Below, one piece after another: positions 11,831-29,800 of a stretch of 64,000 nt of DNA. The stretch lies in the IMG/VR virus record IMGVR_UViG_3300028920_000002, positions 1-64,000 of that record; one strand, 5' to 3'. Position 1 is the stretch's first letter. The number at the start of each line of letters is the position of its first letter. This stretch comes from a virus. The notes under the pieces are model-generated. The model made no database searches and was not told the origin of the DNA. It was given only the letters and a program-made list of their open reading frames with translations. The position numbers and the translations under genes are program-made.

Positions 11831-12439
11831 TCAGCCCGCCTTGGGCGCCTCGTAGGGCGTGACGGTTGAATGGTCGAAGAAGTTGGCTGCAGTGTGGCAG
11901 CCGGCCTTGCCCATGGCGCGCAGTAGGTTGTGCGCGAGCCTCCAGTACCAAGGCACGTCCACATTGTAGGGCTCCGGGACCGTCAGATAGCTAGGAATTT
12001 GCATTCCCAGCCCCGGAACGTTCATCGGTACGAAGGCGGGTAGTCCTGCCCACGACGGAGGCACCATCTGCGGGCCGGTCATGCCCTGCCAGGTTCCTTG
12101 TGGGCTCATGTTTGGGGGTAGAACAGGAGGCGCTGGGGGCCTTGGCGCACTGGTGTTCTGCCAGATTTGCTGTTGTGGTGGTGCGACCACCATCGGAGCA
12201 GTGGGTACACTCGGAACTTGGGGCAAAGATGGAATGAGATTCTGCTGTGGTGCGGCCGGGGCCGCCGCTGCAGCTTTGCGTCGGTTGGTCTCGGTGGCAC
12301 AAGTACTGAAGTACTTGCATCGCTCTCGGCGATTTGAGCCATTCTGTGGGTGAACATAGGCCGGGTCATTCCCGCCGGCACACAGGACGTTGGTGGCATC
12401 CCAGCTCACGCCGTAGCACGGTACAGTCGGATTGGTCAT
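11831..12439 (-). CDS. Hypothetical protein with Cys-rich N-terminus and Pro-rich linker
   Basis: GGAGG RBS; PCYG..LC..RC..C, then low-complexity region. Confidence 0.7.
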   Translation of the reverse strand: MTNPTVPCYGVSWDATNVLCAGGNDPAYVHPQNGSNRRERCKYFSTCATETNRRKAAAAAPAAPQQNLIPSLPQVPSVPTAPMVVAPPQQQIWQNTSAPRPPAPPVLPPNMSPQGTWQGMTGPQMVPPSWAGLPAFVPMNVPGLGMQIPSYLTVPEPYNVDVPWYWRLAHNLLRAMGKAGCHTAANFFDHSTVTPYEAPKAG

Positions 12440-12474: not shown

Positions 12475-12527
12475 CTTATCCCCGGACATCGAATACTCTT
12501 GCAGGAGCGGCGCCCCGCATTTACGCT
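12475..12527. promoter_or_regulatory. Back-to-back promoter pair sharing hexamer 12499-12504
   Basis: Plus: TTGCAG-N17-TACGCT (12499-12527); minus: CTGCAA-N15-GGGGATAAG (12504-12475). Confidence 0.6.
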
Positions 12528-12542
12528 GTTTTGGAGGTCTTC

Positions 12543-13049
12543 ATGGAGAAGCTCAGCGGCCTGGTTCTGGACCCGGCGGACGACCACGACGGAGCCATCC
12601 TCCGCTCCATCTTTCCCGCCGAGTCGGACGTGCCGGAGCTCATCAAGCAGGCGGAGTACTTGAGCCCTGAACGGCGCACGAAGCTGCCGGACGACTTGTT
12701 CGCGCTGATTCTTCAGAGCGATGATGTGTCTCTGCGCAAGTACGCCTGTGCGGACGCAGGGAACACGGCACTCAGCACCGAGTACTTCATGAAGACGGCG
12801 CACAAGTTGCCGGTAGAGGCGCAGAAGGTCGCCGCCTCAAACCTCGTGAAGGCGTGTGCCTGGTATGGCATCGAGCCTCCCGAGCAGCTCGAGAAGGTTG
12901 CTATTGGTCTGCTGACCATGGGTGTTGGTGCCCTGGCTGCCCCAGGTGCTATGCGTCAGGCGAAATCCAACCTGCAGATGGCCAAGCAGTCTCCCGGCAT
13001 CGTCAACCCAGAAGTGACCAAGGCCCCCGTGGTGCCGAAGATGAGGTGA
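12543..13049 (+). CDS. Putative head protein with DUF6582-like domain
   Basis: GGAGG RBS before ATG 12543; KLPDDLFAL..RKY..DA..A..NLVKAC.WYGI; K-x-A sites (MKTAH, EKVAI). Confidence 0.6.
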   Translation: MEKLSGLVLDPADDHDGAILRSIFPAESDVPELIKQAEYLSPERRTKLPDDLFALILQSDDVSLRKYACADAGNTALSTEYFMKTAHKLPVEAQKVAASNLVKACAWYGIEPPEQLEKVAIGLLTMGVGALAAPGAMRQAKSNLQMAKQSPGIVNPEVTKAPVVPKMR

Positions 13050-13052
13050 AGC

Positions 13053-13958
13053 ATGGTCGAGAAAGAAACTCGGCAGCAGTTGTGGCGAAGCATGGGACGC
13101 ATCCTGCACAAGGAGGCGGAACTCGCTGAGACCTACGATATGCCGCTGAGCCCTCCACCCAGCAAGAAGGACCGCGGCAAGGAGAAGACAGTCATCGACA
13201 AGGTCGGCTCTCTGCAACCTCATGTGGACGTGTCCGGGCTCGAGCCGCCGGGAGAGGTGAAGCAGGCGTCCGTCAGTCGCTTCGCCATGCCTTCTCAGCA
13301 GCGCTACCCGCTGGACAGCTACGCCCAGGTGAAGCAGGCAGAAGCCTACTTCATGGAGAACTTCGGCCTGCTACCTCCGAGAGACCGGCATGAATACTGC
13401 GAGAATCTCGTCGGGCGGGCGGGGGAGCTGGCCATCGGCGTGAGCCCGCTCATCGAGAAGTACGGCTCGAGCACCTACGCTACCGCGGAGCAGGTGGGCA
13501 TCGCCATCGACGGACGGCGCTCCATCCTGAAGGACCCGGAGCACGTGGAGCTTCTGGACAAGCTGGCACACATTCGGGTGCACACCCCACCTCAAGTCTT
13601 CGCTGATTCGCTGGCCGAGTTCGACAAGCTTGCCGGCATCGACGAGTACTACGGTCAGGACATCCCGGACCCGTACTACTCAACCTTCGGCAAGACCGCC
13701 GAGAAGCAGGAGAGCGAGACCAGCCCTGAGGGTGCCGTCGTCGTGGGCAATGAGTACGTCACTCAGAGAAAGCTGGTGGAATTCTCCAAGCGTGGGAGCG
13801 GCATCATCTCCAAACGATTCGGCGAAGACTTCCAGAAGGAGTTCACCCAGGACCCCGTGGGCATCCTCAAGTCCTTGCCGCGCGACCAGCAGCTCGTCAT
13901 CATGCGGCTGGCCAACACGGACGAGGTGGTCGGCGTCACTGCGCCGTACGGCGGGTAG
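13053..13958 (+). CDS. Putative head protein with DUF6582-like domain
   Basis: SRFAMPSQQRYPLDSYAQVKQAEAYF; HKEAE, VKQAS, DKLAH, GKTAE. Confidence 0.6.
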   Translation: MVEKETRQQLWRSMGRILHKEAELAETYDMPLSPPPSKKDRGKEKTVIDKVGSLQPHVDVSGLEPPGEVKQASVSRFAMPSQQRYPLDSYAQVKQAEAYFMENFGLLPPRDRHEYCENLVGRAGELAIGVSPLIEKYGSSTYATAEQVGIAIDGRRSILKDPEHVELLDKLAHIRVHTPPQVFADSLAEFDKLAGIDEYYGQDIPDPYYSTFGKTAEKQESETSPEGAVVVGNEYVTQRKLVEFSKRGSGIISKRFGEDFQKEFTQDPVGILKSLPRDQQLVIMRLANTDEVVGVTAPYGG

Positions 13959-13961
13959 TCC

Positions 13962-14798
13962 ATGGACGCTCCGCTCGATTTCGAGCAACGACTCAAGCGG
14001 GCGTTGGATAGCCTCGGCCTGCGCAAGACAGCTGCGCCCTACAAGGTGCCCGCGGGGGATGTCGGTCTACCCGAGGACGGTGATGTCGACAACACCGTGG
14101 AGGTGGAGACGACTCAGGGTGACCGCCAGGCCAGCGACGCAATCTCAGAGAAGCCGTTCCCGAATCCCGTAGGAATCAACCTGTTTCAGCACCCGAGCTC
14201 ACATCCCATCGTGCTGGACCTGGCTCTGCTCAAGAAGTACGGCCCGGAGTGGATGGACTGGGAGCCGGAGATTCTGGCGTGGCGCATTCCTCAGGACTTC
14301 AGGACCGCGTCGGTCAGCGACCTGAACATGAACAAGCTGCAGGCCACGAAGACTCTGCACTACGTGGACAGCTACTGGAGTGAGTGGGAGGTCTTCGTTC
14401 CCTGCACTATGTCGTTCAACGGTTTGCTCCCGGACTTCGAGGTCATGCAGGTGCCGACGGTGGCGCAGTGCATGGTCAGCGTGGACGTGGCCAACCGCAT
14501 TCGCCAGGATGTTTCATGGGGTGAAGAGCTGAAGGAGTACCTCTCCGTGGTGCACTTCCACGAGGGTATCTTCTGCCCCATCGAGCCACTCGAGTTCGTC
14601 AAGGTGGACGGTGAGGACTACCCTGTAGAGTGCGCAATAGTGCGTGAGTTGTGGCCACAGGTGCGCAAGACTGGGCGAGTCCCATCAACCAGTCCTGTTG
14701 AAGAAGAGCAGCTGCATCGACTGCTGCTCGTGCGAGAATATCTCGAGGAGAGCCGAGAGCTTCTTCGACAACAGCTGCCCCTCATCATCGATGCCTAG
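13962..14798 (+). CDS. Hypothetical virion-module protein
   Basis: 278 aa; N-terminal LGLRKTAA then acidic linker and globular region. Confidence 0.7.
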   Translation: MDAPLDFEQRLKRALDSLGLRKTAAPYKVPAGDVGLPEDGDVDNTVEVETTQGDRQASDAISEKPFPNPVGINLFQHPSSHPIVLDLALLKKYGPEWMDWEPEILAWRIPQDFRTASVSDLNMNKLQATKTLHYVDSYWSEWEVFVPCTMSFNGLLPDFEVMQVPTVAQCMVSVDVANRIRQDVSWGEELKEYLSVVHFHEGIFCPIEPLEFVKVDGEDYPVECAIVRELWPQVRKTGRVPSTSPVEEEQLHRLLLVREYLEESRELLRQQLPLIIDA

Positions 14799-16545
14799 AT
14801 TCAGCGAAGAGATAATGCTCGCCTTCGAGGACGAGCTGCAGAAAGAGGCGGCCGGCGCTGGTCAGCTCATGTCCTTTCTGCGCGCTGGAGGGCAGGCTGG
14901 GCTGCGCCGAGGCGCTGGCGTAGGCGCGGTGGGGGGCGGTCTAGCCGGCGGGCTGACCGGGCGTGAGGAGGGCGAGAGGTTCAACGTCGGCCGGGCGCTG
15001 GCGGGCGCCGCGGGCGGCGCGGCCCTCGGCGCTGGCGCCGGGCACTTCGGCTCGAGGGTGATGATGGGCCGGCGGGCCGGATTGGGGCTAGGGGAATCGG
15101 CTCGCATGGCGAAGCAGGACATCGCCGCCACCGTGCGGGGCCTGAGCCCCAAGAGGGTGACGGACGCCGAGAGGGCCAGTGAGGGGCTACGCAAAGCCAT
15201 GGAGCGGGCTCCCACACAGAAGGCGCCGGTGGGCGCGCCTACGAGCGACACCGGCTACCTGCGGGCCTACCGACACATGGACGAGCAGACACGCATCCGG
15301 CGCGGTCTGCCACCCCGCTCCGTCACTCAGCCCAGCCCGCGGGCGCCCGCAGTGAGCGGCGAGGCCACCATCGCCAACCCGGGTGTGGCCCGCCGTAGGG
15401 CGCCTCAGACCGGCGAGGCTACCATTGCCTCTCCAGCTCGCCAGCGGGCGGCACAGCGCGCTGCCGAGCAAGACCTGCCCACCATCATGACCGGCGGGCC
15501 CACGCTCCAGTCAGCTGGTAAGACCACTTTGGCCTCGGCCAAGTATGCTGCCCCCGCCTGGTACACGGCGGCGCGGGGCGCCATGCAGAAAGCGCTGCCG
15601 GGCGCCCAGTCGCGCTTGATGGGCGCTGGTGCTGGCGCGTCCCTGGGAGCCGTGGGCGGGGCCGGGCTCGGCGCCGGGGTTGGCGGCGTCCGCGGCTATC
15701 AGCAGGCCCGACAGCAGGGCGCCACTAAGGGGCAGGCACTGCTCTACGGACTGGGTGGTGGAATGAAGGGCATGGCCTTGGGCGGCGCGGCCGGGTTGAC
15801 CGCGGGCGGCGCGGCCGGCGGCCTGCTGCGCGGTGGAGCAGGGGTAGCGCGGCGTACGGCCGAGCTTGGGGGAGCTACCGGGGCCGTCAGTCGCTTTGGG
15901 CAGCGTCAGATGCATGCTCTCACTGGTGCTCTGCCCCAGGGCATGCCTCGACTTTCAGCTCAGCGGAGTATCGGTGTCGGCGGCGCAGACCTCGCCAGTC
16001 AGCTCAACAAGGCCAAGGCCGGTCTAGCGAAGGCTGCTCCAGGCTCAAGAGAGGCTGCCAGCGCACAGAAGCAGATAGGCTCTCTGTCGAAGGGCATGGA
16101 ACATGCGCGTGCGCTCGAGCAGATGGGGGCTACCAACCTACCTGGATACGTCAAGGCTCTGGCGTCCAGGGATGCAGGTAAGGTGCTCAAGCATACGGCT
16201 GGCTCTCAGTGGCATGGCACTCCCGGTGTAGGGGGCAAGCTCATGGCCTTTGGGATGCCAGCTGGCTTCGTCGGTATGGAGACACTCGGTAAGCCGCAGC
16301 CTGGGCAAGAGGGAGAGAGCAAGCTTCGACGAGGGGCCAAGTCTGTTGCTACGAACCTGCCGTTCCTGCTTCCTATGGGTATGGCTGGTCAACTGGTTGC
16401 TTCCGGCGCTGCAGGTAAGCTGATGGGGCGCCGTGGCGGACGCGTCCCAAACCCGGAGCCAGAGGAGGCGTCGGCATCTGGGGACGTGGAGCGCATCTAC
16501 TCACCGTCTGCGATGGGTAGGCCGCCGGAGGGTATGCTCACATGA
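14791..16545 (+). CDS. Gly/Ala-rich glycine-zipper protein, putative internal head/ejection protein
   Basis: Start at ATG 14791 (MPRFSEEIMLAFEDELQKEAA); several GxxxGxxxG segments among basic stretches. Confidence 0.6.
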   Translation: MPRFSEEIMLAFEDELQKEAAGAGQLMSFLRAGGQAGLRRGAGVGAVGGGLAGGLTGREEGERFNVGRALAGAAGGAALGAGAGHFGSRVMMGRRAGLGLGESARMAKQDIAATVRGLSPKRVTDAERASEGLRKAMERAPTQKAPVGAPTSDTGYLRAYRHMDEQTRIRRGLPPRSVTQPSPRAPAVSGEATIANPGVARRRAPQTGEATIASPARQRAAQRAAEQDLPTIMTGGPTLQSAGKTTLASAKYAAPAWYTAARGAMQKALPGAQSRLMGAGAGASLGAVGGAGLGAGVGGVRGYQQARQQGATKGQALLYGLGGGMKGMALGGAAGLTAGGAAGGLLRGGAGVARRTAELGGATGAVSRFGQRQMHALTGALPQGMPRLSAQRSIGVGGADLASQLNKAKAGLAKAAPGSREAASAQKQIGSLSKGMEHARALEQMGATNLPGYVKALASRDAGKVLKHTAGSQWHGTPGVGGKLMAFGMPAGFVGMETLGKPQPGQEGESKLRRGAKSVATNLPFLLPMGMAGQLVASGAAGKLMGRRGGRVPNPEPEEASASGDVERIYSPSAMGRPPEGMLT

Positions 16546-18599
16546 CCTTTCCCGGGATGTTCAACTTCAGCTGCGGAGCTGCTGGCCCGGGGCGTGGCGG
16601 CGGGTACACACCGGGGCGCATGCGCGGTGGGTTGCAGGGACAAGGTCTCGGTTACCCCAATCCCTTCTTCGACATCGCCCACACGTATCTACCGGCGACC
16701 GTCAAGGAGATGTTCAAGTACTGCCGGTACTACTTCCTGACCAACGCGCTCATCAACGCGACGGTCTTCAAGTTGAGCGAGTACCCCGTCACCGACATCA
16801 TCATCGACCACGAGAACTCTGAGACGAAGAAGCGGTGGGAGGAGTACTTCCACGACCACCTGCAGTACCGGCCGTTCCAGGTTGAGTGCGGGCTCGACTA
16901 CAACACGTACGGCAACTGTCTGGTCAGCCTGAGCTTCCCCTTCCAGAAGTACCTCAAGTGCCGCGGCTGCGGCTACACCGAGCGCGCGGACAAGATTCGC
17001 CCCTTCTGGAAGTTCACCAACTTCGGCTTCCGCATGACCTGTCCGCATTGTGGGACGACCGAGGAGGCCATTGCCAAGGACGTCTACCTGAAGAACGCCA
17101 GCGGCATCAAGCTGCTGCGGTGGAACGTCGAAGACATCGAGATTCAGTACAACGACATCAGCGGTGAGTGCACGTACTACTACACCATTCCCCAGCCGCT
17201 GCGCTCGGACATCGTCATCGGCAAGAAGGAAGTCGTTGAAGGCGTACCCCAAATCTTCATCCAGGCGCTGCGTCAACAGAAGGGCATCATCTTCAGCAAG
17301 GACAACCTCTTCCACCTCAAGCGCCCGACGCTGGCGTGGCAAGACCGCGGCTGGGGCATCCCGCTCATCCTGCCGGTGCTCAAGGATACGTTCTACCTGC
17401 AAATCATGAAGAAGGCGCAGGAGGCGGTGCTGCTCGAGCACGTCGTCCCACTACGCGTTCTTTTCCCACAGGCGGCCTCCGGTACCAGCGACCCGTTCAC
17501 CACCATCAACCTGACCCAGTGGAAGGAACAGGTCGCCAGCGAGATTGCGCGGTGGCGCTACGACCACAACTACATCCCCATCATGCCGCTGCCTCTGGGC
17601 AATCAGAGCATCGGCGGCGACGGCAAGGCTCTTCTGCTCATGCAGGAGATGCAGATGTGGTCAGAGCACATCATCATGGGGATGGGCGTGCCCCGCGAAT
17701 TCCTCATGGGAGGCTTGAGCTATGCCGGCACCAACGTGTCGATGCGGATGCTCGAGAACGCGTTCATCGGTTACATCCTGCGCCACAAGCTGATGGCCAA
17801 CTGGGTGATGAAGATGGTCGCCAACTACATGGAGTGGCCCGAGGCGAAGATTCGCTTCAAGCCCTTCAAGATGGCCGACGACATCCAGCGCAAGGCGTAC
17901 CTGTTCCAACTCAACCAGGCGCAGAAGATTTCGGACACCACGCTGCTCGCCGATGCCGACCTCAACATGGAGGAGGAGGACGAAATCATGGTCCACGAGA
18001 CGGATAAGCGTCTCGAGTCGACCAAGAAGCAGCAGCTCGCGATGGCCCAGATTCAGGGAGAGTCTCAGGTCATCATGATGAAGATGCAGGCCAAGGCACA
18101 GGAGGCCATGCAGGCTGCTCAGATGGGTCCTCAGGCTCCCGGAGAGCCAGGCGGCCCCGAGGGCCCGCTGCCGGGCATGCCGCCCGGTGCTGGCGCCCCT
18201 CCGCCCGGCGCCGCGGGCGTCCCCATGGGCGGCCCTCCAGCGCCCATGCCGGAGGCCGGGGGTGGCGGCCCGACTGGCGGCATGCCTGCTGAGGCACAGA
18301 GCCAACTCGGCGCTGGCCAGGACCTGGGCGCGCCTCCTGGGCAGGAGCAGATGGGTGTGGACCTGGTTCAACTGGCGGAGGGATACGCGGCTCAGGTCGC
18401 TCAGCTCCAGCCGGAGCAACAGGAGCTGGCGCTGCAGGCCATCGAGGCTCAGAGTCCCGAGCTTGCTCAGCTGGTGCAGCAGTTCATGTCCCTCATGATG
18501 CGCGGCCAAGCTGGGCAGCACTTGGGCGGGGAGCCCCAAGTAGACATGCGCCCACTGCCGGAGAAGCTGCCGCCGCGGCGTGAAGCGGCGATGGTCTGA
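16542..18599 (+). CDS. Portal protein with Zn-ribbon insertion and Pro/Gly-rich tail
   Basis: ECGLDYNTYGNCLV, FHLKRP..GWGIPLI, MGVPREFLMGG.SY; CRGCG..CPHCG insert; first large gene of the virion arm. Confidence 0.78.
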   Translation: MTFPGMFNFSCGAAGPGRGGGYTPGRMRGGLQGQGLGYPNPFFDIAHTYLPATVKEMFKYCRYYFLTNALINATVFKLSEYPVTDIIIDHENSETKKRWEEYFHDHLQYRPFQVECGLDYNTYGNCLVSLSFPFQKYLKCRGCGYTERADKIRPFWKFTNFGFRMTCPHCGTTEEAIAKDVYLKNASGIKLLRWNVEDIEIQYNDISGECTYYYTIPQPLRSDIVIGKKEVVEGVPQIFIQALRQQKGIIFSKDNLFHLKRPTLAWQDRGWGIPLILPVLKDTFYLQIMKKAQEAVLLEHVVPLRVLFPQAASGTSDPFTTINLTQWKEQVASEIARWRYDHNYIPIMPLPLGNQSIGGDGKALLLMQEMQMWSEHIIMGMGVPREFLMGGLSYAGTNVSMRMLENAFIGYILRHKLMANWVMKMVANYMEWPEAKIRFKPFKMADDIQRKAYLFQLNQAQKISDTTLLADADLNMEEEDEIMVHETDKRLESTKKQQLAMAQIQGESQVIMMKMQAKAQEAMQAAQMGPQAPGEPGGPEGPLPGMPPGAGAPPPGAAGVPMGGPPAPMPEAGGGGPTGGMPAEAQSQLGAGQDLGAPPGQEQMGVDLVQLAEGYAAQVAQLQPEQQELALQAIEAQSPELAQLVQQFMSLMMRGQAGQHLGGEPQVDMRPLPEKLPPRREAAMV

Positions 18600-18672
18600 A
18601 CTGAGGGCTAGAGAAGAGGACCCGCACGGATGGGTCCTTTCGGGAGCCCGCTGCTCCCTCTTCTCCTCGTCG

Positions 18673-19110
18673 CTACTTCTTGCTCATGGAGCCGGCGACG
18701 GCACCGGCGAGGAAGCCGATGGCGGCGGCAGCGGCTTCGGAGCTGGAGTCGCGACGGACGCGGTGCTCGACGACGGTGCGGGTGCGCACGACCGGCCGCT
18801 CGACGACGACGGTGCGGGTCACCGTGTGGCGGGGGCGGCGCCCGTTGTCGCGCGAGTGGTCCGGCGTGGCCTCCTTGAAGGTGTCGTCCCAGCGCACGCG
18901 CTTGCAGTGGTGGCGCCGCTGGCAGTCGAACACCTCTTCGGGGACGCGCACGACGGGCACGCGCTCGGTTTCGGCGAAGGGCCCATCCTTGCGGATGAGG
19001 TACCACTGCCGTTCACCGTGCAGGTACTCGAAGAGGGCATCGCTGATGCCGATGTCCCAGTTGCGCCAACGACGGACGGGATTGCCTGAGGGGGTTCGGA
19101 GATTCATCAT
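18673..19110 (-). CDS. Hypothetical protein with C-terminal glycine-zipper-like helix
   Basis: ATG 19110 after GGAG; ends AAAAAIGFLAGAVAGSMSKK. Confidence 0.6.
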   Translation of the reverse strand: MMNLRTPSGNPVRRWRNWDIGISDALFEYLHGERQWYLIRKDGPFAETERVPVVRVPEEVFDCQRRHHCKRVRWDDTFKEATPDHSRDNGRRPRHTVTRTVVVERPVVRTRTVVEHRVRRDSSSEAAAAAIGFLAGAVAGSMSKK

Positions 19111-19325
19111 TTGCTTCTTGCTCCTGGCTCTACGCCATACTGGCCGAGAGAACTCGGCTGTGAGGTTTCCCGGCTGCCTAAGCACTCGCGCCCGCCGGGA
19201 GGGCGCTTTGGTCGTCGGTGTTCTACACCTGCGGTGCTTGCTCCCGCAGAGTCTTTCCGGTCTAGCGGCGCGGGCGTCAGACTCGAACGCCGGAGAGCCT
19301 CATCTGGTCAATGTGGTTCCTCTCC
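19111..19325 (-). ncRNA. Candidate structured leader RNA/ncRNA (unclassified)
   Basis: About 215 nt without a good ORF downstream of a class B motif; at least five hairpins plus a long-range stem. Confidence 0.35.
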
Positions 19326-19331
19326 ATAATT

Positions 19332-19359
19332 CTTATCCCCGACTGAGCATCAATTTTGC
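19332..19359 (-). promoter_or_regulatory. Class B promoter-like motif
   Basis: Minus strand ctGCAA aattgatgctcagtc GGGGATAAG, just downstream of a terminator. Confidence 0.6.
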
Positions 19360-19363
19360 AGCT

Positions 19364-19391
19364 AGAAGAAAGGCCACGTTGTTGTGGCCTT
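19364..19391 (-). terminator. Intrinsic terminator after VWA gene
   Basis: Minus strand AGGCCAC-aacaac-GTGGCCT followed by ttcttct. Confidence 0.6.
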
Positions 19392-19395
19392 CCCT

Positions 19396-20766
19396 CTACT
19401 CGAACTCGTCAACCACTGATTGTTCTTCAGTGCAGATGACGATGTGCCCCCAGTCGGCCGGCTTGCTACGCCATCGGCTGGGTACGATGCACCAGATAAC
19501 CGGAATGCCTTTGGGTGGCTTGTCCGGCGCGGAGCCGTCACCGTCAGTCAAGTAGATGATGACGTCGGGGCGTGGCTTCAGTTTGGCGGCTCGCGCTAGC
19601 GGTTCGATGAAACTAGTGCCGCCGCGGCCTACTGGGTCGAGCCTGGGAATGTCCTTTAGCCTCACCAGCTTGAAGCCGTACTGCTGCGTGTCTGCATCAG
19701 CCCACCAGACCTGCTCCACACCGGTCTGCTCCATCAATGCGATGGCTTCGTTGTTCGCCTCGTGCAGCTGTTTGGTTCCCATGGAGCCAGAAGTGTCTCG
19801 GATGAGGCAGGGTACCCACTGCTGGTCAATCATGCCGGGTCGTAGAATGCCCCGCAGCAGTGAGCGTTTGGAGGGGCGCCGCAGGGAGAAGTCGCTGCCG
19901 CCTGAGATAGCGATACCGGAGGCGCGCCGAACGATGCGGCTGAGCGTACGCTTCCAGTCGTTCTTGGACTTCTTCTTGGGAACGCTGTCCAGCAGCTGTT
20001 TTAGGTGTCCAGGTACGGAGCCGCGACCCTGCTGCTCGACGTGCTCCCGCACGGCGTGAACTACTTCTTCTCGGGCGGATTGAACCTCGTCTTTGCTCCG
20101 GCCGAGACCACGTGACTTCAGCTCGTCTTCGACGGGGTCGTTGCTTGCACCACCGCCTGCGGAGCCGCTTACGCCGGAGCATATGTCCCAGCGCATTCCA
20201 TCCTTGCCACCCTGGCCCTTCTGCTTGGAGGAGCTCTTGCCACCCTGGCCCTGGTCGTCTCCGTCCCCACTGCCAGGCGGACTTCCCATCAGCCGGTAGA
20301 CCTTCTTGGCGTCTGCCTTCAGCCGCTCGAGATACTGTTCGAGCGTCTCGCCATCTGGATAGCCGTACGAACCCGGGAAAGCACCCCATGAAGGCAACTT
20401 CACTCCGGCCTGTTGAAGCGGACCGTTGATGGCCAGGTCTGCCGCGAGGGTGACCAAGTTCTCATCCTCGCCTTGTTGCAGCAGCACCTCGATGCGCTCC
20501 ATGTGTTCCTGCACATGCCAGCACTCGTGGAAGAGTACGCCGGCCAAGGTCTCTGGGTCACTCAGCTCGGGGTCGTCTACAACTCGTATTGGGTCGACGG
20601 AGAGGATGCAATCTTTGCTGACCCCGAGAGTGTTCAGCCCTACGACGAATACGGGGACCAGCTTGTACTGAATCGCCGACATGTACGGCGCGAGTTTCTC
20701 GAGCTCAAGGCGGGCGAGCTCCAGTAGGTCGCCCGCCTTGTCCTCATAGTCGATAGCTGCGCTCAT
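19396..20766 (-). CDS. HExxH metallopeptidase-like + VWA domain protein (DUF2201-like)
   Basis: GVLFHECWH, DLAIN, RRPSKR, IRDTSGSM (MIDAS), GRGGTSF, IYLTDGDG. Confidence 0.85.
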   Translation of the reverse strand: MSAAIDYEDKAGDLLELARLELEKLAPYMSAIQYKLVPVFVVGLNTLGVSKDCILSVDPIRVVDDPELSDPETLAGVLFHECWHVQEHMERIEVLLQQGEDENLVTLAADLAINGPLQQAGVKLPSWGAFPGSYGYPDGETLEQYLERLKADAKKVYRLMGSPPGSGDGDDQGQGGKSSSKQKGQGGKDGMRWDICSGVSGSAGGGASNDPVEDELKSRGLGRSKDEVQSAREEVVHAVREHVEQQGRGSVPGHLKQLLDSVPKKKSKNDWKRTLSRIVRRASGIAISGGSDFSLRRPSKRSLLRGILRPGMIDQQWVPCLIRDTSGSMGTKQLHEANNEAIALMEQTGVEQVWWADADTQQYGFKLVRLKDIPRLDPVGRGGTSFIEPLARAAKLKPRPDVIIYLTDGDGSAPDKPPKGIPVIWCIVPSRWRSKPADWGHIVICTEEQSVVDEFE

Positions 20767-22031
20767 AGACCCAGTGCGTTCGCGTACTTGGACAGGCCCT
20801 TCTGCCCGAGGCGGTAGACGACCTCTTCGGACACCTTCTTCAACTCAGGGGTTGCGTCTGTGGAGTCGAAGTAGACGTTGTGCTTGACCAGTGCGGCAGA
20901 AGATTTGACGGCCATGTCGCTGATTTTCTTGTCCATGCATCTGCCCAGGATGTCCCAGGCCGCAGGAGCGAGCTTGAGCTGCTCTTTGCGATTGGGTCGT
21001 CCGGTGAGGTACGTCACCATGCTGGTGAGCGCTGCAGCAGTGATGTCCAACCGTTGTGGGTTGGGCGTCCAGCCGTTGGTGAGCATCTCGAGGGGCTTGG
21101 GCAGGTCGCATTCGCGCAACCAGGTCAGCCACTCCTTCATGACACCTTGGCCCACACAGGCTTGCACGAGCTCACGCTCCAGTTCTCCTCGTAGCGCCTT
21201 GCGCGCCTCAGCGGCCTTCATCTGGTTTTCGTCGCTCGGGTCGGTGACGGGCAGGTCTGGGTACAGGCATGCGGCAGTAGCCTTGGCACGGCCGGCCCAG
21301 TTCCAGGTGCGGTGGCTAGGCCATGCACCGCCAGAGTCCGCATCATCCGGTTTGGGCTGCTGGTGAATCAGGGACGGCTTGCGCTTCATGAAGCCAACCA
21401 GTTGACCGCGTACTTCGGGCCATTCGTCGGGCCAGGAGTTAGTAACTCGCTGCTCTCCTTTTAGGACTGCCTCTACACGGAGCTGCGCATTGCCGAGCAG
21501 CCAGTCAATCCACTCGTCTGCGCTGGGCGCTCTGTAGGCCACATGCGCCAGTCGGTTGGCCAGAGGGGGCTCGAGGCCGAATCCGCCAGCGGCGTACTCC
21601 GGCGGGTTCATCGCAGTGACCACTCGCACTTTGGGTGGCAGGATGTGGTCTCCAACCCTGCGTTCATTGACCACGCTGAGCAGAGCAGCCTGGACCGCAG
21701 GGCGAGCGCATGAAATCTCGTCGATGAACAAGACACCGTAGCCGGTGTCTAGGAGCTTCCTCGCTTGAGGCAGAATGCACTCAATGACCACGCCGTTGGG
21801 CGTGGCGAAGGGGGCTCCCGTGAAGTCCTCCGGCTGCTTTGTAGCCGGGTAGACGGTTTGAACATTGAGACCTACTGCTGCACCGGCGGCCTGGATGCGC
21901 TCGGATTTGCCGATGCCGGAGAGCCCTTCGATGTTCACGGGCAATCCCCAGATGCAGGCGGGATTTGTCGGCTCGCCGTGGGGGACGAGAAACGCTGTCG
22001 CTAGGAACTGTTCTAGGCTAGCCATATTCAT
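20763..22031 (-). CDS. MoxR-type AAA+ ATPase
   Basis: EGLSGIGKS, LFIDEISCARPAVQAALL, AMNPP, LEPPLANRL, PSHRTW. Confidence 0.88.
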   Translation of the reverse strand: MNMASLEQFLATAFLVPHGEPTNPACIWGLPVNIEGLSGIGKSERIQAAGAAVGLNVQTVYPATKQPEDFTGAPFATPNGVVIECILPQARKLLDTGYGVLFIDEISCARPAVQAALLSVVNERRVGDHILPPKVRVVTAMNPPEYAAGGFGLEPPLANRLAHVAYRAPSADEWIDWLLGNAQLRVEAVLKGEQRVTNSWPDEWPEVRGQLVGFMKRKPSLIHQQPKPDDADSGGAWPSHRTWNWAGRAKATAACLYPDLPVTDPSDENQMKAAEARKALRGELERELVQACVGQGVMKEWLTWLRECDLPKPLEMLTNGWTPNPQRLDITAAALTSMVTYLTGRPNRKEQLKLAPAAWDILGRCMDKKISDMAVKSSAALVKHNVYFDSTDATPELKKVSEEVVYRLGQKGLSKYANALGL

Positions 22032-22302
22032 TCAGCTGTTCGTTGACTTCTTTACACCACGCGGCAGGCATGACGGTGACCACTTGCTGCTCACCGACAA
22101 TGACCGCGAACCCATCTTCTCCGTAGAAGCAGAACGGGAAGTACCGTCCGCTTGGGGTGTCTACCACACGACCGCTACGCCTGGCGTCATCAATACGCTC
22201 GGTGAGCGTCTGCATGAGCTGGGCGTCGGAGTAGCGGCGGGCGTCAGACCACCTATCTCGGAATTGCGTTAGAGCATGGTGTGTGAACACCAGTGGCTTC
22301 AT
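22018..22302 (-). CDS. Small hypothetical protein
   Basis: ATGA overlap with upstream gene; VFTHHALTQFRDRW. Confidence 0.6.
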   Translation of the reverse strand: MKPLVFTHHALTQFRDRWSDARRYSDAQLMQTLTERIDDARRSGRVVDTPSGRYFPFCFYGEDGFAVIVGEQQVVTVMPAAWCKEVNEQLNEYG

Positions 22303-22904
22303 CCGCCTCGTCGATATCTGCACCCGCCTTCGCATTCTCCTGTTCTCCAGCAGCGTCTCGAAGTCCCCTCCTCACATTCGCCGTGGTACGACAAGTTGCT
22401 CCAGAGCTCTAGTATGGACGAGGTGTACTCCCTCATGCATGAGATGCAGTAGAAGTCTGGAGCCTGCGTCCCTTGAAAGCAAATCGTCGATTCACCGTTC
22501 GGCGTCTGCTTTGGACGTTGGAGCCTGCCTAGTGTGGACATGCCACAAGGCTCCCAAGGTGGGATGTCACTGCTACAAATTGAGCACCTGCAGATGGAGT
22601 AGTCGCACAGCTCGGGGGCGAAGTTCCCGTAGGTCTCTTCCATGTGTTCGCGAAGCTTATCTATCGTCTCGTCCCAGCAGACCTCATCCAAGAACGACGG
22701 CTCGTAGCCATAGTCGCCCTCAGAGTTCAGCACTGGTCGGAATGTGAGTATGTTGCTCTCGTCGATGTGACCGTAGACGACCTGCACGAGCACTACATCG
22801 CTAGTCAAGTGCAGCGCCTCTCCGCATGAGTCACACTCGTGGCCTGACTGGAAGATGATGTTCTCCAGCTCAGCTTCATCCGGCGTTAGGGCAGCCGGGT
22901 CCAC
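22299..22904 (-). CDS. Cys-rich acidic hypothetical protein
   Basis: GGAGG before GTG 22904; CDSC, CRCSIC, CISC, C..RRCWRTGEC. Confidence 0.6.
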   Translation of the reverse strand: MDPAALTPDEAELENIIFQSGHECDSCGEALHLTSDVVLVQVVYGHIDESNILTFRPVLNSEGDYGYEPSFLDEVCWDETIDKLREHMEETYGNFAPELCDYSICRCSICSSDIPPWEPCGMSTLGRLQRPKQTPNGESTICFQGTQAPDFYCISCMREYTSSILELWSNLSYHGECEEGTSRRCWRTGECEGGCRYRRGG

Positions 22905-23422
22905 ATCAGTTTCCTCCGTTCTACTCGAGACCATCGCCTCGAGAGGGTGAGCAGCCGTGGGTCTGGGTACATCCCGGTTTCGGGGTCCATATCCCACAAC
23001 AACATCTGCATCTCCTCGACGTCGGATGTAGCGTCTAGGTGAATGCGTCGGTCCAGCTGCAGATTGCTGGGTAAGAAGTGATGCTGGCACTGCGCCCTGA
23101 GGTCGAGCTCCCGCTCGTACAGGTCGTCGTCCAGGTCGATGGAGTCAACACAGAGTCCGTAGAACTCCGGGTCGTTTATACCCGGATACTCCTGGTTCGC
23201 CCAGAAGCACCACTCACCTGGTCTAGCCAGTTCCACCAGCAGCTCGAAGTCTCGTTGGTTGCAGAACGTGACGAAGCCCTTCTGGTCCACCAGTTTGACC
23301 CGCACCCCTCCCAGCGCTCTTCCGGGTATAGGGGCGTAGAGTTTGGTGACTGTCCACCTTCTTCCGAAGATTTTGGGGTCGTCGACACTCAGGCCGACAA
23401 CCCCAAAACCCTCGCTCAGCAT
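22886..23422 (-). CDS. Hypothetical protein
   Basis: ORF from the track, start adjusted to ATG 23422. Confidence 0.6.
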   Translation of the reverse strand: MLSEGFGVVGLSVDDPKIFGRRWTVTKLYAPIPGRALGGVRVKLVDQKGFVTFCNQRDFELLVELARPGEWCFWANQEYPGINDPEFYGLCVDSIDLDDDLYERELDLRAQCQHHFLPSNLQLDRRIHLDATSDVEEMQMLLWDMDPETGMYPDPRLLTLSRRWSRVERRKLMWTRLP

Positions 23423-23441
23423 TCGGGTTCCTGGATAGACG

Positions 23442-23540
23442 TTAAGGCCGCAGTATGGGTCCAAGAGCACCGTTCAGTGTCTCCACTAGATAGAGGAGGA
23501 CCCCGTTCAACAGCCCGGCCACGAACATCGACCAGAACAT
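23442..23540 (-). CDS. Putative 32-aa membrane peptide
   Basis: MFWSMFVAGLLNGVLLYLVETLNGALGPILRP; ATG directly follows the upstream TAG. Confidence 0.4.
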   Translation of the reverse strand: MFWSMFVAGLLNGVLLYLVETLNGALGPILRP

Positions 23541-23699
23541 CTAGCTCTCCGAGTCGTCCTCGCCTTCGTCCTCGGCCCGGTCGTCCTCCTCGTCCTGGTC
23601 GCCTTGGTCATCCTCACAGCCCCCGTACAGCTCGTTGATGTCCTGCTCGAGTCCCGCCCCGACGTTCCTGTCTTCTTCTTCTCTGGGTCCGCCATACAT
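23541..23699 (-). CDS. 52-aa highly acidic protein
   Basis: AAAGGAG RBS; MYGGPREEEDRNVGAGLEQDINELYGGCEDDQGDQDEEDDRAEDEGEDDSES; not in ORF track. Confidence 0.7.
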   Translation of the reverse strand: MYGGPREEEDRNVGAGLEQDINELYGGCEDDQGDQDEEDDRAEDEGEDDSES

Positions 23700-23746
23700 A
23701 GCTGTCTCCTTTGCGGTGGAGGGAGTCAGTCTCCCTCTCCACTACT

Positions 23747-23800
23747 GTTATTCCGCATGCTGCGAATGCCTTGCGGGGTATTCAGGCAGTGGAGTACGCT
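23747..23800. promoter_or_regulatory. Back-to-back promoter pair sharing hexamer 23771-23776
   Basis: Plus: TTGCGG-N18-TACGCT toward RNAP gene; minus: CCGCAA-N16-GGAATAAC toward acidic-peptide operon. Confidence 0.55.
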
Positions 23801-23815
23801 ACAATCGACTGACGA

Positions 23816-26800
23816 ATGGCGCGCCTAGACCCTAGTGAATCGTTCGCCGACTTCCGAGACCGCACGCTCGAGGGCATCCGTTCTCATTTCCCTGTCAAGG
23901 GAAGAACGCAGACGCTGGAGCTGGATGACCTGGAAGTCGATAGCGCAGGTATGGAGTCCGACGACATCCGTGGGCAGCATAGGGCTAAGGTAGAAGGCGC
24001 TAGTTGGAGTGCGCCGGTCTACGCCACTATGTCGCTGCGCGACAACGAGACGGGCAAGGCCAAGAAGCAGCGCATCAAGTTGGCTGAACTGCCGATGATG
24101 ACCAGGCGCTACAGCTACATCGTCAATGGCCAGGAGTATCAGGTCGACAACCAGTGGCAGCTCAAGCCGGGCGTTTACACACGCCGGCGCCAGAATGGTG
24201 AGCTCGAGTCTCGTTTCAACATCGTCAACAAGCCTCACTTCGACTTGAAGTTCGAGCCGGACAAGAAGCGCTTCTTGATGGAGCGTGGGAAGTCCAGCGC
24301 CATTCCTCTCTACCCGCTGATGAAGTCTCTCGGTATCAGCGACGACGACCTGGAGAAGACGTGGGGCAAAGAGATTCTCGAGCAGAACAAGGCAGCACGC
24401 GGCGTATCAGGCGCCCTAGAGAAATTCTACAAGGCGGACCGAAAGAAGTCGGCGCCGTCCAAGGAGGAAGCAGAGCGCTACTTCTACGAGACGATGATGC
24501 AGTCAGAGCTCCGTCCAGAAGCGACCAAGCGAACGCTGGGTAAGGAGTACAGCACTGTAGAGGGCGATGCCGTCCTGCGCGCCACGAAGCGGATGTTGGA
24601 GGTACAGAGTGGTGCCCCAGAGGACGACCGAGACTCTCTCGTCTTCAAGGACCTGCGCGGAGCAGGCGACTACGCGTTCGACCGACTGACAGACTACAAG
24701 ACGCGCCGTAGTCTGCAGGGCAAGATGGGGCGCCAAATCAACAACGCCAGAAGCATCCGCGACGTGATTCGTCCTGGAACCTTCGACGACCAGATTCGTA
24801 GGACCTTCACCGAGAACAAGGGCGCGACCCGCGTGCCGGAGCAAATCAATCCGGTAGAGATGATTGCTGGGTCACAGCAGACGACCGTTATGGGTCCCGG
24901 TGGCATTCAAAGCGAGAACGCCATCATGGATGAGACGAAGTTCATCAACCCGACGCACTTCGGGTTCTTGGACCCCATCCATACCCCGGAGGGCAACAAG
25001 ACTGGTGTGACGCTGCATCTGCCCATGGGAGTGAGCAAGAAGGGGAAGTCTCCGGTCATCCCGGTCTACAACCTGAAAACCGGCAAGGGTGAGCGCATCA
25101 CTCCTGAGCAGTTCATGGACTCTACAGTGGCGCTGCCCGACCAGATGAAGTGGAAGGACAACAAGCCCACTCCTGTTGGCAAGAAGGTCAAGGTATCCAC
25201 ACCCGGCAACGAGCTCGATGAGGTGGACCCGAAGGACGCGAAGTACGCGATGTACCATCCATCGCAGGCGTTCAGTATCACGAGCAACCTGGTTCCCTTC
25301 ATGGGGAACACCTCTGGCAACCGTGCCAGCTATGCCACGCACCACATCGAGCAAGCCATCAGCCTCAAGGACCGGGATGTGCCTCTGGTCCAGTCTGGTA
25401 CTGGTGGTCAGCGGGAGGGCCTACGTACCTTCGAGGAGCTGTTGGGTCGGGGCTCGTCGCATCCCTCGCCGATGGATGGCGAAGTAGTCAAGGTGAAGAA
25501 GGATGGCGTCATCGTTAAGGGCAAGGATGGCAAGACCCGAGAGATTCAGCTCTACAACAACTTCCCGCTCAACGATGCCAAGGCCGTCATCGACTCTACT
25601 CCGACGGTGAAGGTCGGCGATAAGGTGAAGCAGGGCCAGCCTGTTGCTGACACCAACTTCACCAAAAACGGCACGCTGGCATTGGGTAAGAACCTGCGTA
25701 CTGCCTATCTGCCATTCAAGGGCTACAACTTCGAGGATGGCGTAGTCATCAGTGAGAGCGCCGCCAAGAAGCTTACTAGTGTCCACATGCACAAGCCGGA
25801 CACCAGGGTCGCCGACAGCGACGTGACCGACCCGAAGAAGTTCCGGGTCTTTCACCCTGAAGCGTTCACGAAGGACCAGTACAAGCTGGTCGGAGATGAC
25901 GGTATCGTGCGTGTTGGCACAAGGGTGCAGAAGGGAGACCCCCTCGTACTCAATACCAAGCCCTATCAACTGCGCGACAGGACTGGTATCGCCGCTGTGC
26001 GCAAGAACGCCTCAGGTGCGCAGACCGACGCCTCATTGAAATGGGACTCGGACTACGCAGGGGAGGTGGTGGGCGTACACCGCGGAAAGAAGGGCCAGAT
26101 TGGCGTCCACGTTCGCACTGAAGAGCCGATGCAGGTCGGCGACAAGCTGACTGGGCGGCACGGCAACAAGGGCATCGTCACCAAGGTCATCCCTGATAAG
26201 GAGATGCCTCATACCAGAGATGGCAAGCCGATTGAGGTAGCGCTCAACCCCGCTGGCGTGCCCGGTCGTATGAATGTGGGTCAGGTGCTCGAGACTGCGG
26301 CGGCCAAGGTAGCTGAGAAGACTGGTAAGCCCTACATCGTTGAAAACTTCGAGCATGGCGTCGACCAACTCAAGCGGGTGAAATCCGACTTGAAGAAGCA
26401 CGGCTTGTCGGACACTGAAGAGCTCATCGACCCGAATACTGGCAAGAGTCTAGGTAACGTCCTCGTCGGTCCGCAGCACATGCTCAAGCTGCAGCATCAG
26501 GTAGACAAGAAGGCGTCGGCCCGCTCCGGTATGAGCCTCAAGGGTGAAGAGGGAGAGGGGTATGACTACAACCTGCAGCCGGTGGGTGGCAGCAAGACCG
26601 GAGCGCAGAGCGTAGGCAACTTGGGTATCTACACACTGCTCGCTCACGGCGCCAAGGCCAACATCCGAGAGATGCAGACCTGGAAGAGCGAGGGCGAGGA
26701 TACCAGCCCGGAGGGGAAGCGTTGGGCGTCTCAGCACAATGAGGTCTGGCGCGCCATCCAGAGTGGAGACCCGCTGCCGCCACCCAAGCCAACGTTCGCC

Positions 26801-29800
26801 TTCCACAAATTCACCGAGATGTTGAAGGCGGCTGGCATCAACGTTGAGAAGCGTGGCAACACCATGCAGCTCAACCCGCTCACCAACCAGGACATCCTGA
26901 ACATGTCAGCGGGGGAGCTCTCGAAGCCAGCGGACCGGCTTCGCCAGGGCAAGCTCGATGAGAATGGCGACCCCATGCCCATGAAGGGAGGGCTGTTCGA
27001 CCCGAAGCTCACCGGTGGGCACGGTGGGAAGAAGTGGACGCACTTCAAACTGGCAGAGCCAGTTCCGAATCCGGTCTTCGAGGGAGCCATCCAGCGGCTG
27101 ACTGGGCTCACCGGTAAGCAGTACGAGTCAGTCGTCAACGGTGAGCAGTCCATCGACCTCAAGACGAGGAAGGTCGTACCTCTTGGCAAGGGCGCGACGG
27201 GAGGCCCCGCCATCAAGAGCATGCTCGATGGCATCGACGTGAACAAGGAGCTGGAGCAGTCCATGAAGGAGCTGGAGGCGGTGAAGCTGCCTTCTGGATT
27301 CGCTCACGGCGCCAGCACCACGAAGCTCGACAAGGCGATGAAGAAGGTGAGGCACCTTCAAGTCCTCAAGGACAAGAAGATGAGCCCCTCCGACGCCTAT
27401 ATGCTGGAGAACGTACCGGTCATCCCGCCGGCGATGCGCACGGTCAGCGTGCTGAAGGACGGCGGCGTTCGCTGGGGCGATTTGAACCAGCTCTACTCCG
27501 ACCTCGCCCAGACCAATGGCGAGATGGGCAAGATGAAGCAGCGCTCCTACTTCGGCGACAAGGACCTGAAGGACAGTCGAAAGGATGTCTACGATGGGCT
27601 TCGCGCTTTGGTAGGTATTGGTTCCTCGCCGGCTGAGAAGGAGGCCAAGAACAAGGGCGTGCTGCAACAGATTGCTGGCAGTCAGCCGAAGAAGGGCTAC
27701 TTCCAGAACACCCTGATGAACCGTCGTCAGGACATGAGCATGCGCTCGACCATCGTTCCTGAGCCGGCGATGGGGTTGGATGAGGTGGGCATTCCTCAGG
27801 AGCATGCACTCAAGCTGTTCCGTCCGTTCGTCGTCAAGAAGATGATGGACATCGGCGTGGCTCCAACTGAGTTGGATGCTCAGCACATGCTGGCCGAGAA
27901 GAAGAAGGATAAGGGGGTGTGGCGGGCGCTGGACTTGGCGATGGAGGACCGGCCGGTTCTGATGAAGCGTGACCCCGCACTGCACAAGCATTCGATGCAG
28001 GCGTTTCGCCCTTACCGTACGAGCGGGCACGCTATCAAGATTCATCCGCTGGTGACCAATGGCTACAACGCTGACTTCGATGGCGACACCATGAGCATGT
28101 TCGTCCCCATCTCCAAGGAGGCAGTGGACGAAGCCAAGCAGATGCAGCCGTCGAACAACCTGTTCAACGAGGCGCAGGGTAAGGTTACCTACACTCCGAC
28201 CTTGGAGAGTTCATTAGGCTTGTACAAGATGAGCCGCGTGCGTGGTGATGGTAAACAGCAGTACAAGAACCCCACCGACGTGCTCAAAGCCGTGGAGGCG
28301 GGCAAACTGCCGATGGACGAGCTCGTCACCGTCGGTAAGATGAAGACTACTGGTGGCCGCATCATGCTCTCCTCCGCGCTGCCTAAGCCGCTGCAGAACA
28401 AGATGCTGACTGACCACAAGTTCGTCCTGGACAAGAACGGCGTTCATCAGCTCTACACAGACTTGGCGAAGAACCATCGTGCGGACTTCGGAGAGGCGGC
28501 GAACAAGCTCAAGGACTTTGGTTTCGACGCTTCCTACGGCTCAGTACGCGTGGCACATCCACAGCACAAGGGACCCAACGCCATCGCGGCTATGGAGAAC
28601 CCGAAGCAGAACGTCAAGTTCCTGCCGATGGGAGCGCATACCTTGTCGCTCGACGACCTGGAACCCGACCGTGAGGTCCGAGACCGGGAAATCGCCAAGG
28701 CGCAGAAGCAGGTGGACAAGATTCGCTCCATGAAAGGACTGTCCAAGCTCGAGCGCGACCGGCGCAGCGTAGCCATCTGGGAGAAGGCGGATGCCGACAT
28801 CGCTCGGAAGCATGTAGGTCGCGCTGAGGCTAGAGATGACCGCCTGCACCAGATGTTGGCGGCCGGCACTAAGCCAAGTTGGTCTCAGTACAAGCAGCTC
28901 AAGCTCGCGCCGATGGTAATGCAGGATGCGGCTAACCGGGACATCCCGACGCCCATCAAGCACTCCTACTCAGAGGGCCTCGACATGGGCGAGTACTGGA
29001 CCGGGATGCATGGCGCTCGGCGAGGTACGGTCCTCAAGGTTCAGGAGGTGCAGGAGCCCGGCTACTTCTCCAAGCAGCTCATCAACACCACGATGAACAT
29101 GGTGGTGAACAAGGATGACTGCGGCACCAAGCGGGGCATAGCGGTTCCGGTCGGCTCGAAGGATATCTACGACCGTGAGTTGGCAGCGCCGGTAACAGTC
29201 AAGGGAAAGACCTTCAAGCCGGGCACGATTCTGGGACCGGACCTGGTCGCTCAGATTCGCTCCCACGACAAGAACGCGCAGCTCGTTGTACGGAGCGCGC
29301 TTCGCTGCGAGCACGGTGATGGCCTCTGCCAGCACTGCGCCGGCCTGTCCGCCGACGGCACCTACTACAAGAAGGGCTCGAATCTGGGTGTGCTCTCTGC
29401 CCAGTCATTGGGTGAGCGCGCCGTGCAGCTGCCGATGAAGATGTTCCACAGCGGCGGCGTCAAGCAGGGCGGACGGGGCGGAGTGGTCGGTATGTTCGAC
29501 CGCACCAAGCAGCTGACTGAGCTGCCCAAGAAGATTCCAGACGCCTCAACCCTGGCCATGCACTCGGGTACCGTCGACAAGGTAGAGCGGGACCCCACCG
29601 GCACGAACGTATGGATTGGTGGGCAACGACATCACGTGCCGAAGGACCGCTCTGGTATGCCTCTGCACATTCCCTTGCCAGGTGAGAAGGTCAAGGGTTG
29701 GCAGCCACCTAGAGTAGGGATGAAGGTGGAGGCCGGCCAGTCACTTAGCGACCCCACCCGCACCTTCGTGAATCCGCACGACCTGTACAAGGCCACGCGT

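Follow-up and report, generated by a model that had tools for sequence, protein, structure and literature searches.

The first 64,000 nucleotides (64 kb; hereafter the window) of IMG/VR record IMGVR_UViG_3300028920_000002, a phage genome of 186,723 bp, hold two divergent gene junctions at which one hexamer is positioned as the -35 element of two promoters on opposite strands. The junction at 12475-12543, on the side of the portal operon, is referred to as J1, and that at 23747-23816, on the side of the gene for the phage RNA polymerase (RNAP), as J2. This architecture is very likely real. We further consider it probable, on the sequence evidence set out below, that each junction is composed of two genuine back-to-back promoters of different classes, a phage-specific one directed leftward and a housekeeping-type one directed rightward, with the hexamer as their common -35. 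The genome is that of an uncultured phage; it is complete, with direct terminal repeats, and has a G+C content (GC) of 61%. A megablast search with 12-24.5 kb as query gave no DNA-level match to cultured phages.

Re-reading of the sequence returned the coordinates, hexamers and spacings at J1 and J2 exactly as they had appeared in a preliminary description of the window (Table 1). The shared hexamer lies 16 nt from the leftward -10 box at both junctions, and 17 nt (J1) or 18 nt (J2) from the rightward TACGCT; the distance between the two -10 elements, which enclose the one hexamer, is 39 bp at J1 and 40 bp at J2. The same geometry does occur twice, as had been claimed: TTGC[AG]G-N16-19-TACGCT is found only at J1 and J2 when both strands of the whole genome are searched. 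The narrower pattern TTGCRG-N17/18-TACGCT has two matches in the window versus 0.05 expected from shuffles, a figure which is not independent since the pattern was set post hoc. The proposed minus-strand reading is genuine as well, with three window matches to CAA-N16-GGNATAANRNNNNYGG against 0.00 expected. Rfam families had no match over 12-24.5 kb, and none in either junction.

The leftward elements belong to a phage-specific promoter family. An iterated weight matrix identified about 31 copies genome-wide, pointing at gene starts with a Shine-Dalgarno sequence (SD), of which a few low-scoring ones (14-22 bits) may be false. The family motif consists of C-n-G-C-A-A-a, a stretch of ~12 nt, and T-T-n-n-GGGATAA(G/C)AG-n-a-GTGGA, where N16 separates CnGCAA from the box; the long GGGATAA(G/C)AG box, which occupies the -10 position, is unlike the -10 of sigma-70. 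Both J1 (GGGGATAAG) and J2 (GGAATAAC) are ordinary members of the family (for their scores, see Table 1). Each contains the GGNATAA(G/C/A)(A/G) box, the ..GTGG that follows it and a gene start with an SD, and in each the upstream element (CTGCAA at J1, CCGCAA at J2) is exactly N16 from the box. As a control for circularity, copies were re-selected by the -10 box and downstream element alone. This yielded 21 matches versus 0.6 expected, and 12 of the 21 carry CAA at positions -19..-17, versus 1.2% expected. The enrichment of CAA in copies chosen without it indicates that the -35-like element of the family is genuine, and its antisense is TTG(C). Antisense TTGC is built into nearly every phage-type promoter copy, such that sharing of the hexamer requires no extra sequence. 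CAA, the core of the leftward -35, and TTG of the rightward one are reverse complements, and this triplet carries the most information in both readings.

Two further features of the family were observed. The predicted leftward leader at J2 (23703-23742, minus strand) contains a hairpin that starts at the conserved GUGGA (-17.4 kcal/mol, z = -2.5), and inverted repeats anchored at GTGGA likewise occur in the leaders of several other promoter copies; the J1 leader is not among them (z = -0.8). At genome positions 109953-109988 and 118776-118811, outside the window, two phage-type promoters are paired back to back at exactly 20 nt from box to box (GTTATTCC-20-GGCATAAG and TTTATCCC-20-GGGATAAC, respectively), each -35 overlapping the opposite -10 box. 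These pairs represent a second type of compact overlap in the same genome.

The assignment of the rightward promoter to the housekeeping-sigma type, TTGnnn-17/18-TAnnnT, is partly supported by its sequence. Both hexamers (TTGCAG and TTGCGG) start with TTG, and the 17 and 18 bp to TACGCT are within the 16-19 bp spacing to TAnnnT of sigma-70-type promoters. Among the 31 copies of the phage family, only those of J1 and J2 have a TAnnnT at 16-19 nt from the antisense TTG, and in both cases it is TACGCT. The phage-type promoter at 19332-19361, which is located between co-directional genes and served as an internal control, displays antisense TTGCAG without a TAnnnT partner. At another divergent junction (genome positions 88746-88777, outside the window), antisense TTGCGG is followed after 14 nt by an extended -10, TGgTAGAGT, which lies 9 nt before an ATG; this near-miss of the shared-hexamer layout probably needs no -35 to work.

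Related phages were the source of the comparative evidence. The RNAP has relatives in 79 IMG/VR loci (35-63% identity over the first 800 residues) and, at ~31%, in Vibrio phages D69, D148 and D181 and Salmonella phage Arash. Conservation at J2 was assessed in the RNAP junctions of 63 distinct relatives and that at J1 in 14 relatives, the latter reached via the relatives' own records; locus searches with the 168-aa protein encoded to the right of J1 and with the helicase gave none. Conservation of both spacings, which the preliminary description had put forward as a check, was only partly borne out: the layout is present in 17 of the 63 relatives at J2 and in 3 of the 14 at J1, but most relatives lack it. 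The phage box itself precedes the RNAP gene, as a conserved element, in the majority of these 63 relatives. Of the 17 sequences that fit box-N16-TTGnnn-N18-TAnnnT, 15 have a first spacer of 16 nt and 16 have a second spacer of 18 nt, and the layout persists at 43-63% RNAP identity. The 15 sequences spaced 16/18 (J2 of the window plus 14 relatives) have an average pairwise identity of 0.32 and 0.38 in the two spacers, which is near random, and of 0.77-0.82 in the three elements, where the pattern used for selection raises the figure in part. Across the J2 relatives, TACGCT is 8 to 29 nt from the start codon but at a fixed distance from TTGC, which argues for a constraint on the -35/-10 pair rather than on translation. 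At J1, J2 and in most J2 relatives, the sense CAA is followed by G (antisense cTTGC), and in 19 of the 31 family members by A; the G at shared sites may be the signature of a double constraint.

At J1, the relative L092 reads CTTATCCG-16-TTGCAG-17-TACGCT, with unrelated spacers, and the layout also occurs in L089 (TTGCGG-18-TACGTT) and L100 (TTGCCG-17-TATTGT). In two other relatives the hexamer is not shared. L099 (G011) contains CTTATGCC-16-TTGCGG-14-TTGCAG-17-TACGCT, i.e., two separate hexamers offset by 20 bp, and L096 (G007) contains CTTATTCC-17-TTGCGG-5-TTGCGG-18-TACGCT, in which the offset is 11 bp. Both retain one hexamer per promoter at its proper distance, as would be expected if each promoter needs one. 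The sequence CTACTC is found just upstream of TTGC at J1 in the window, L092, L093, L098 and L099, and in L099 it stays with the rightward copy, which may point to an additional element of the rightward promoter or to the binding site of a factor.

Several points weigh against two promoters with a common -35. The relatives share descent, such that their counts are not independent events, and the shared layout is kept in only the minority of them given above. Conservation of antisense TTGC is by itself uninformative on rightward use, since phage-type promoters carry it anyway. TTGCAG and TTGCGG each match TTGACA at only 3 of 6 positions, and for this reason a generic sigma-70 scan, which called for at least 4 of 6 E. 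coli consensus bases in each hexamer, was negative over 9-28 kb; thresholds set for E. coli may be unsuited to a genome with 61% GC, and the scan was too strict here. In addition, TACGCT is G+C-rich for a -10, and at J2 the overlapping TACAAT, which recurs in relatives L003 and L011, could act as a promoter with a -10 alone. Most other host-type promoters of the genome are of that class, with no -35 and often 5-7 nt before starts that lack an SD.

These last observations lend some substance to the view that the rightward promoters consist of a -10 only (TACGCT, or TACAAT at J2), TTGCRG serving the leftward promoter alone and nothing being shared, a view which we consider distinctly unlikely. 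TA(G/C)A(C/A)T hexamers generally occur 5-20 nt before starts without a -35 in this genome, TACAAT overlaps TACGCT in L003 as it does at J2, and in many relatives TAGAAT, TATACT or TAATAT lies near the RNAP start at a variable distance from TTGC. Such variable placement also implies that the shared layout marks one sub-clade and not the whole family. Against this view, the distance of 17/18 nt is fixed in the 17 J2 and 3 J1 relatives despite their scrambled spacers, and L099 and L096 have a second TTGCRG at 17-18 nt from TACGCT though the phage promoter has its own copy. Moreover, TACGCT deviates from the -10-only consensus at position 4 and would seem to be a weaker -10, dependent on a -35.

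The shared layout is also encountered in G001, the closest near-complete relative, where the copy at the RNAP junction is paired with TAnnnT and the copy at the portal junction is a shared-hexamer site too; the sole other match is unrelated, with 19 nt. This genome was scanned with the CAA-N16-box expression, since a stricter core expression gave only 7 matches. The position weight matrix of the phage's own genome, applied to the loci of relatives, identified 14 non-junction promoters with no shared-hexamer site among them, which are too few for a good null. Across relatives whose GC ranges from 0.45 to 0.70, the leftward box is constant, whereas the rightward -10 varies in type (TACGCT, TAGAAT, TATACT, TAATAT), a pattern that fits phage-encoded recognition on the left and host-dependent recognition on the right. 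In Arash, the gp203c/gp204 junction (L084, 1872-1971), which precedes the portal-RNAP operon, reads CTTATACC-N17-TTGAAT-N15-TAGTCT, with GGTATAAG as its leftward box. This layout is comparable, but the spacings differ, and the rightward promoter would be a poor one by Salmonella sigma-70 standards.

The phage codes for a candidate reader of the leftward class. The gene for the sigma factor P0002 (261 aa; genome positions 103178-103963) has one of the phage-type promoter copies in front of it, and homologues were found in all 5 relatives tested, including gp10 of Arash. Its distant matches are to SigB/F/G and FliA/WhiG, but it does not reach the curated cut-off of a group-3 sigma factor (FliA/SigB/SigF): the best match, TIGR02980, scores 27.1 bits versus a cut-off of 234, and FliA_WhiG 18.9 versus 189.6. 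Sigma region 2 (PF04542) had no match in the genome, whereas region 4 (PF04545) did. In purified Arash particles, mass spectrometry detected sigma, beta' and RNAP beta, the last with more spectra than any other protein; according to the authors, this could reflect either packaging for early transcription or carry-over of abundant proteins (PMC10585845).

The co-occurrence of these factors with the promoters, together with the constant leftward and variable rightward elements, suggests that the phage sigma and polymerase act on the left side and a housekeeping-type (host) holoenzyme on the right. The leftward CYGCAA-N16-GGGATAA(G/C)AG..GTGGA would most likely be recognized by a P0002 holoenzyme, probably with the fused beta-beta' polymerase, and would drive replication and accessory genes. 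The rightward TTGCRG-N17/18-TACGCT would most likely be recognized by the host holoenzyme and would drive both operons at the start of the virion module, namely the portal operon and that of the RNAP with head and tail genes.

Alternatively, the phage polymerase may read both classes with different factors, either a captured host sigma-A or an unrecognised phage late factor, in which case the contest would be one of sigma versus sigma. TAC(G/C)CT and a G-rich stretch upstream (GnGG.GTAC.CT) are conserved beyond the plain TAnnnT requirement, and, given the abundance of RNAP in Arash virions, the phage enzyme might be available during the whole of infection. This alternative nonetheless appears improbable, as a second conserved sigma was not found and the rightward -10 type differs among relatives, as adaptation to the host predicts. 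One candidate for a second reader was rejected. P0001 (145 aa; genome positions 129247-129684, or L081:1249-1686) is rich in Cys in its N-terminal half and contains a region 4.2 helix, LTRERVRQIEARAL, nearly identical to that of primary (RpoD-like) sigma factors; its gene is expressed from a hexamer, TACACT, that lies 6 nt ahead of the ATG. Searches of G001, G006 and Arash gave no convincing homologue, and matches in G004 and G009 are marginal (E 0.002-0.009). It was dropped from the mechanism because it is absent from G001, which has both shared-hexamer junctions; it may be a decoy for the -35 or the beta-flap.

With a phage holoenzyme on the left and a host-type one on the right, the two transcription machineries probably compete at the junctions, judging by the retention of the layout in relatives. 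Since sigma region 4 is lodged in the -35 major groove, we infer mutual exclusion at the shared hexamer: two region-4 domains could not sit together on the one TTG/CAA triplet of a DNA molecule, and each template would fire in one direction at a time, the direction being set by the amounts and affinities of the two holoenzymes. A point against such an effect is that E. coli promoters with a shared element, in that case the -10, compete only when one side is strongly active, and negligibly at basal activity (PMC12825309); by this analogy, competition at J1 and J2 would be plausible but not guaranteed.

It is possible, if rather doubtful, that a genuine architecture of this kind plays no part in regulation, the rightward promoter having co-opted TTGC and the two sides firing independently, at low occupancy, on different genome copies. 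The antisense TTG(C) being intrinsic to the phage promoter, any TAnnnT 17-18 nt away yields a shared -35, and some relatives manage without sharing; the basal behaviour of the E. coli promoters is equally in keeping with this explanation. On the other hand, the layout occurs at two junctions of one genome, both bordering the virion module, and endures to the RNAP divergence noted above, and phage promoters are usually strong, which favours competition.

That sharing of the hexamer sets the order of gene expression is speculative. If the phage holoenzyme were injected, for which the Arash virion proteome leaves room, the left side would be first and the virion side later; otherwise the RNAP operon would be first. 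Of the earlier interpretation, the comparative evidence upholds the claim that, at J1 and at J2, a single hexamer is placed so as to be the -35 of both opposite promoters. Its extension to a repressor-free early/late toggle strikes us as unlikely. In such a toggle, the phage holoenzyme, possibly injected together with the DNA, would fire the left side first and would then be titrated by replicating DNA or outcompeted, whereupon a housekeeping-type holoenzyme would fire the rightward virion genes, including the polymerase gene.

The two promoters might also cooperate, the negative supercoils of leftward transcription helping to melt TACGCT, such that left activates right. A G+C-rich -10 is hard to melt, the predicted starts are close (~65 bp apart by inference), and reciprocal stimulation has been described for bidirectional promoters of bacteria (bioRxiv 10.1101/2020.01.31.928960). 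We regard such coupling as highly improbable: it leaves unexplained why the hexamer itself, beyond mere proximity, is kept, and the sequence offers nothing that separates cooperation from competition.

Like several other phages, the present one appears to have separate gene classes read by separate holoenzymes, and its polymerase gene is among the virion genes. Phage N4 employs a virion RNAP early and the host sigma-70 RNAP late, SPO1 a sigma cascade, and phiKZ virion and non-virion RNAPs. To our knowledge, the promoter classes of N4, SPO1 and phiKZ are at separate sites, with no -35 common to two classes. The leftward promoter also resembles those of group-3 sigma factors, i.e., TAAA-N15-GCCGATAA for FliA/sigma-28 and GTTT-N14-17-GGGTAT for SigB/SigF, in its G-rich extended -10 ending in ATAA/TAT and its A-rich -35 (GCAA-N18-GATAA here, TAAA-N18-GATAA there), but the CnGCAA of the phage -35 and the downstream GTGGA have no counterpart in them.

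The bidirectional promoters of Warman, Grainger and colleagues, whose starts are 18, 10 or 23 bp apart (bioRxiv 10.1101/2020.01.31.928960; PMC12825309), are similar in that a short pseudo-symmetric element is read on both strands and one orientation blocks the other. There, however, the -10 is shared, each promoter has its own -35 and sigma-70 acts both ways, whereas here the -35 is shared between two classes. The opposite-strand -10 overlap of those promoters, with starts ~18 bp apart, is absent from J1 and J2, whose -10 elements are 39 and 40 bp apart. In phage P22 immI, the promoters Pant and Pmnt are likewise divergent and overlap, and together they form a compact decision point (as cited in PMC2724298). 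A single host holoenzyme reads both P22 promoters, which are governed by the repressors Arc and Mnt at operators, whereas the two sides of J1 and J2 differ in promoter class. No operator-like inverted repeat of at least 8 nt was found in either junction, where imperfect sites remain possible. A literature search of incomplete coverage found no published -35 shared by two sigma classes. What is distinct in the present case is that the two readers differ in promoter class and that the arrangement recurs at both borders of the virion module.

If the common -35 is confirmed, this would be a natural instance of two sigma specificities in competition, one on each strand, for a single set of three base pairs, located at the boundary between the non-structural and virion genes of a widespread but barely studied clade of ~150-195-kb phages with their own multisubunit RNAP. 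This would constitute a minimal, protein-free means by which any one template expresses only one of two gene sets at a time. It would also provide a testable handle on the hand-over of transcription between machineries, for which Salmonella phage Arash is a cultured relative and the un-shared variants L096 and L099 are natural controls.

The coordinates of the promoter elements and neighbouring genes are presented in Table 1. The gene context in the preliminary description proved correct, with UDG and helicase genes to the left of J1 and small genes to the left and the RNAP to the right of J2. The rightward operon at J1 comprises five genes, the last of which codes for the portal protein. Downstream of the RNAP gene, on the same strand, are the genes for the large terminase (TerL, at 37527), major head protein (at 47577) and tail sheath (at 56157), and the virion block at 24-63 kb contains none of the 31 phage-type promoter copies. 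Both rightward units thus open the virion module, whereas the leftward units are non-structural (replication and accessory genes).

Table 1. Promoter elements and genes at the two divergent junctions. Positions are those of the window; strand is given where recorded.
Feature	Position	Strand	Details
J1 leftward phage-type -10 box	12475..12482	-	plus reads CTTATCCC, sense GGGATAAG, then AGAAGCGGA; 33.0 bits
J1 shared hexamer	12499..12504	both	TTGCAG plus (rightward -35), CTGCAA minus (leftward -35)
J1 rightward -10 candidate TACGCT	12522..12527	+	L092 and L099 have this hexamer at an equal distance
J2 leftward phage-type -10 box	23747..23754	-	plus reads GTTATTCC, sense GGAATAAC, then AGTAGTGGA; 44.7 bits
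J2 shared hexamer	23771..23776	both	TTGCGG plus, CCGCAA minus
J2 rightward -10 candidate TACGCT	23795..23800	+	commonest hexamer here among relatives
J2 alternative -10 candidate TACAAT	23800..23805	+	overlaps TACGCT; 10 nt before ATG; no -35 at usable distance; fits -10-only class of the genome
Internal control phage-type promoter	19332..19361	-	CTGCAA-N16-GGGATAAG; 41.1 bits; between co-directional genes
UDG gene	8792-9637		leftward of J1
ResIII helicase gene	10073-11821		leftward of J1
First leftward J1 gene	11831..12439	-	202 aa, no family match; ATG 12439 behind AGGAGG; helicase and UDG genes downstream
First rightward J1 gene	12543..13049	+	168 aa; SD GGAGG, then ATG 12543; kept at junction in 14 relatives
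Portal protein gene	16542..18599	+	31% identity to gp204 of Salmonella phage Arash; also matches Bacillus phage G portal
DUF2201 VWA/metallopeptidase gene	19396-20766		in leftward J2 operon
AAA+ ATPase gene	20763-22031		in leftward J2 operon
First leftward J2 gene	23541..23699	-	small, 52 aa; ATG 23699 behind AAGGAG
RNAP gene	23816..30271	+	2151 aa, fused beta-beta' multisubunit type; ATG 23816; opens virion-gene block

The RNAP chain carries the Pfam domains Rpb2_6, Rpb2_3, Rpb1_1, Rpb1_2 and Rpb1_5 together. In this fusion, beta (Rpb2 domains) occupies residues ~340-900 and beta' (Rpb1 domains) residues ~1070-2040. A single open reading frame of Arash, gp206, spans residues 12-1513 of the RNAP, and the point at which the chain is split in that phage is therefore not the bacterial beta/beta' boundary.

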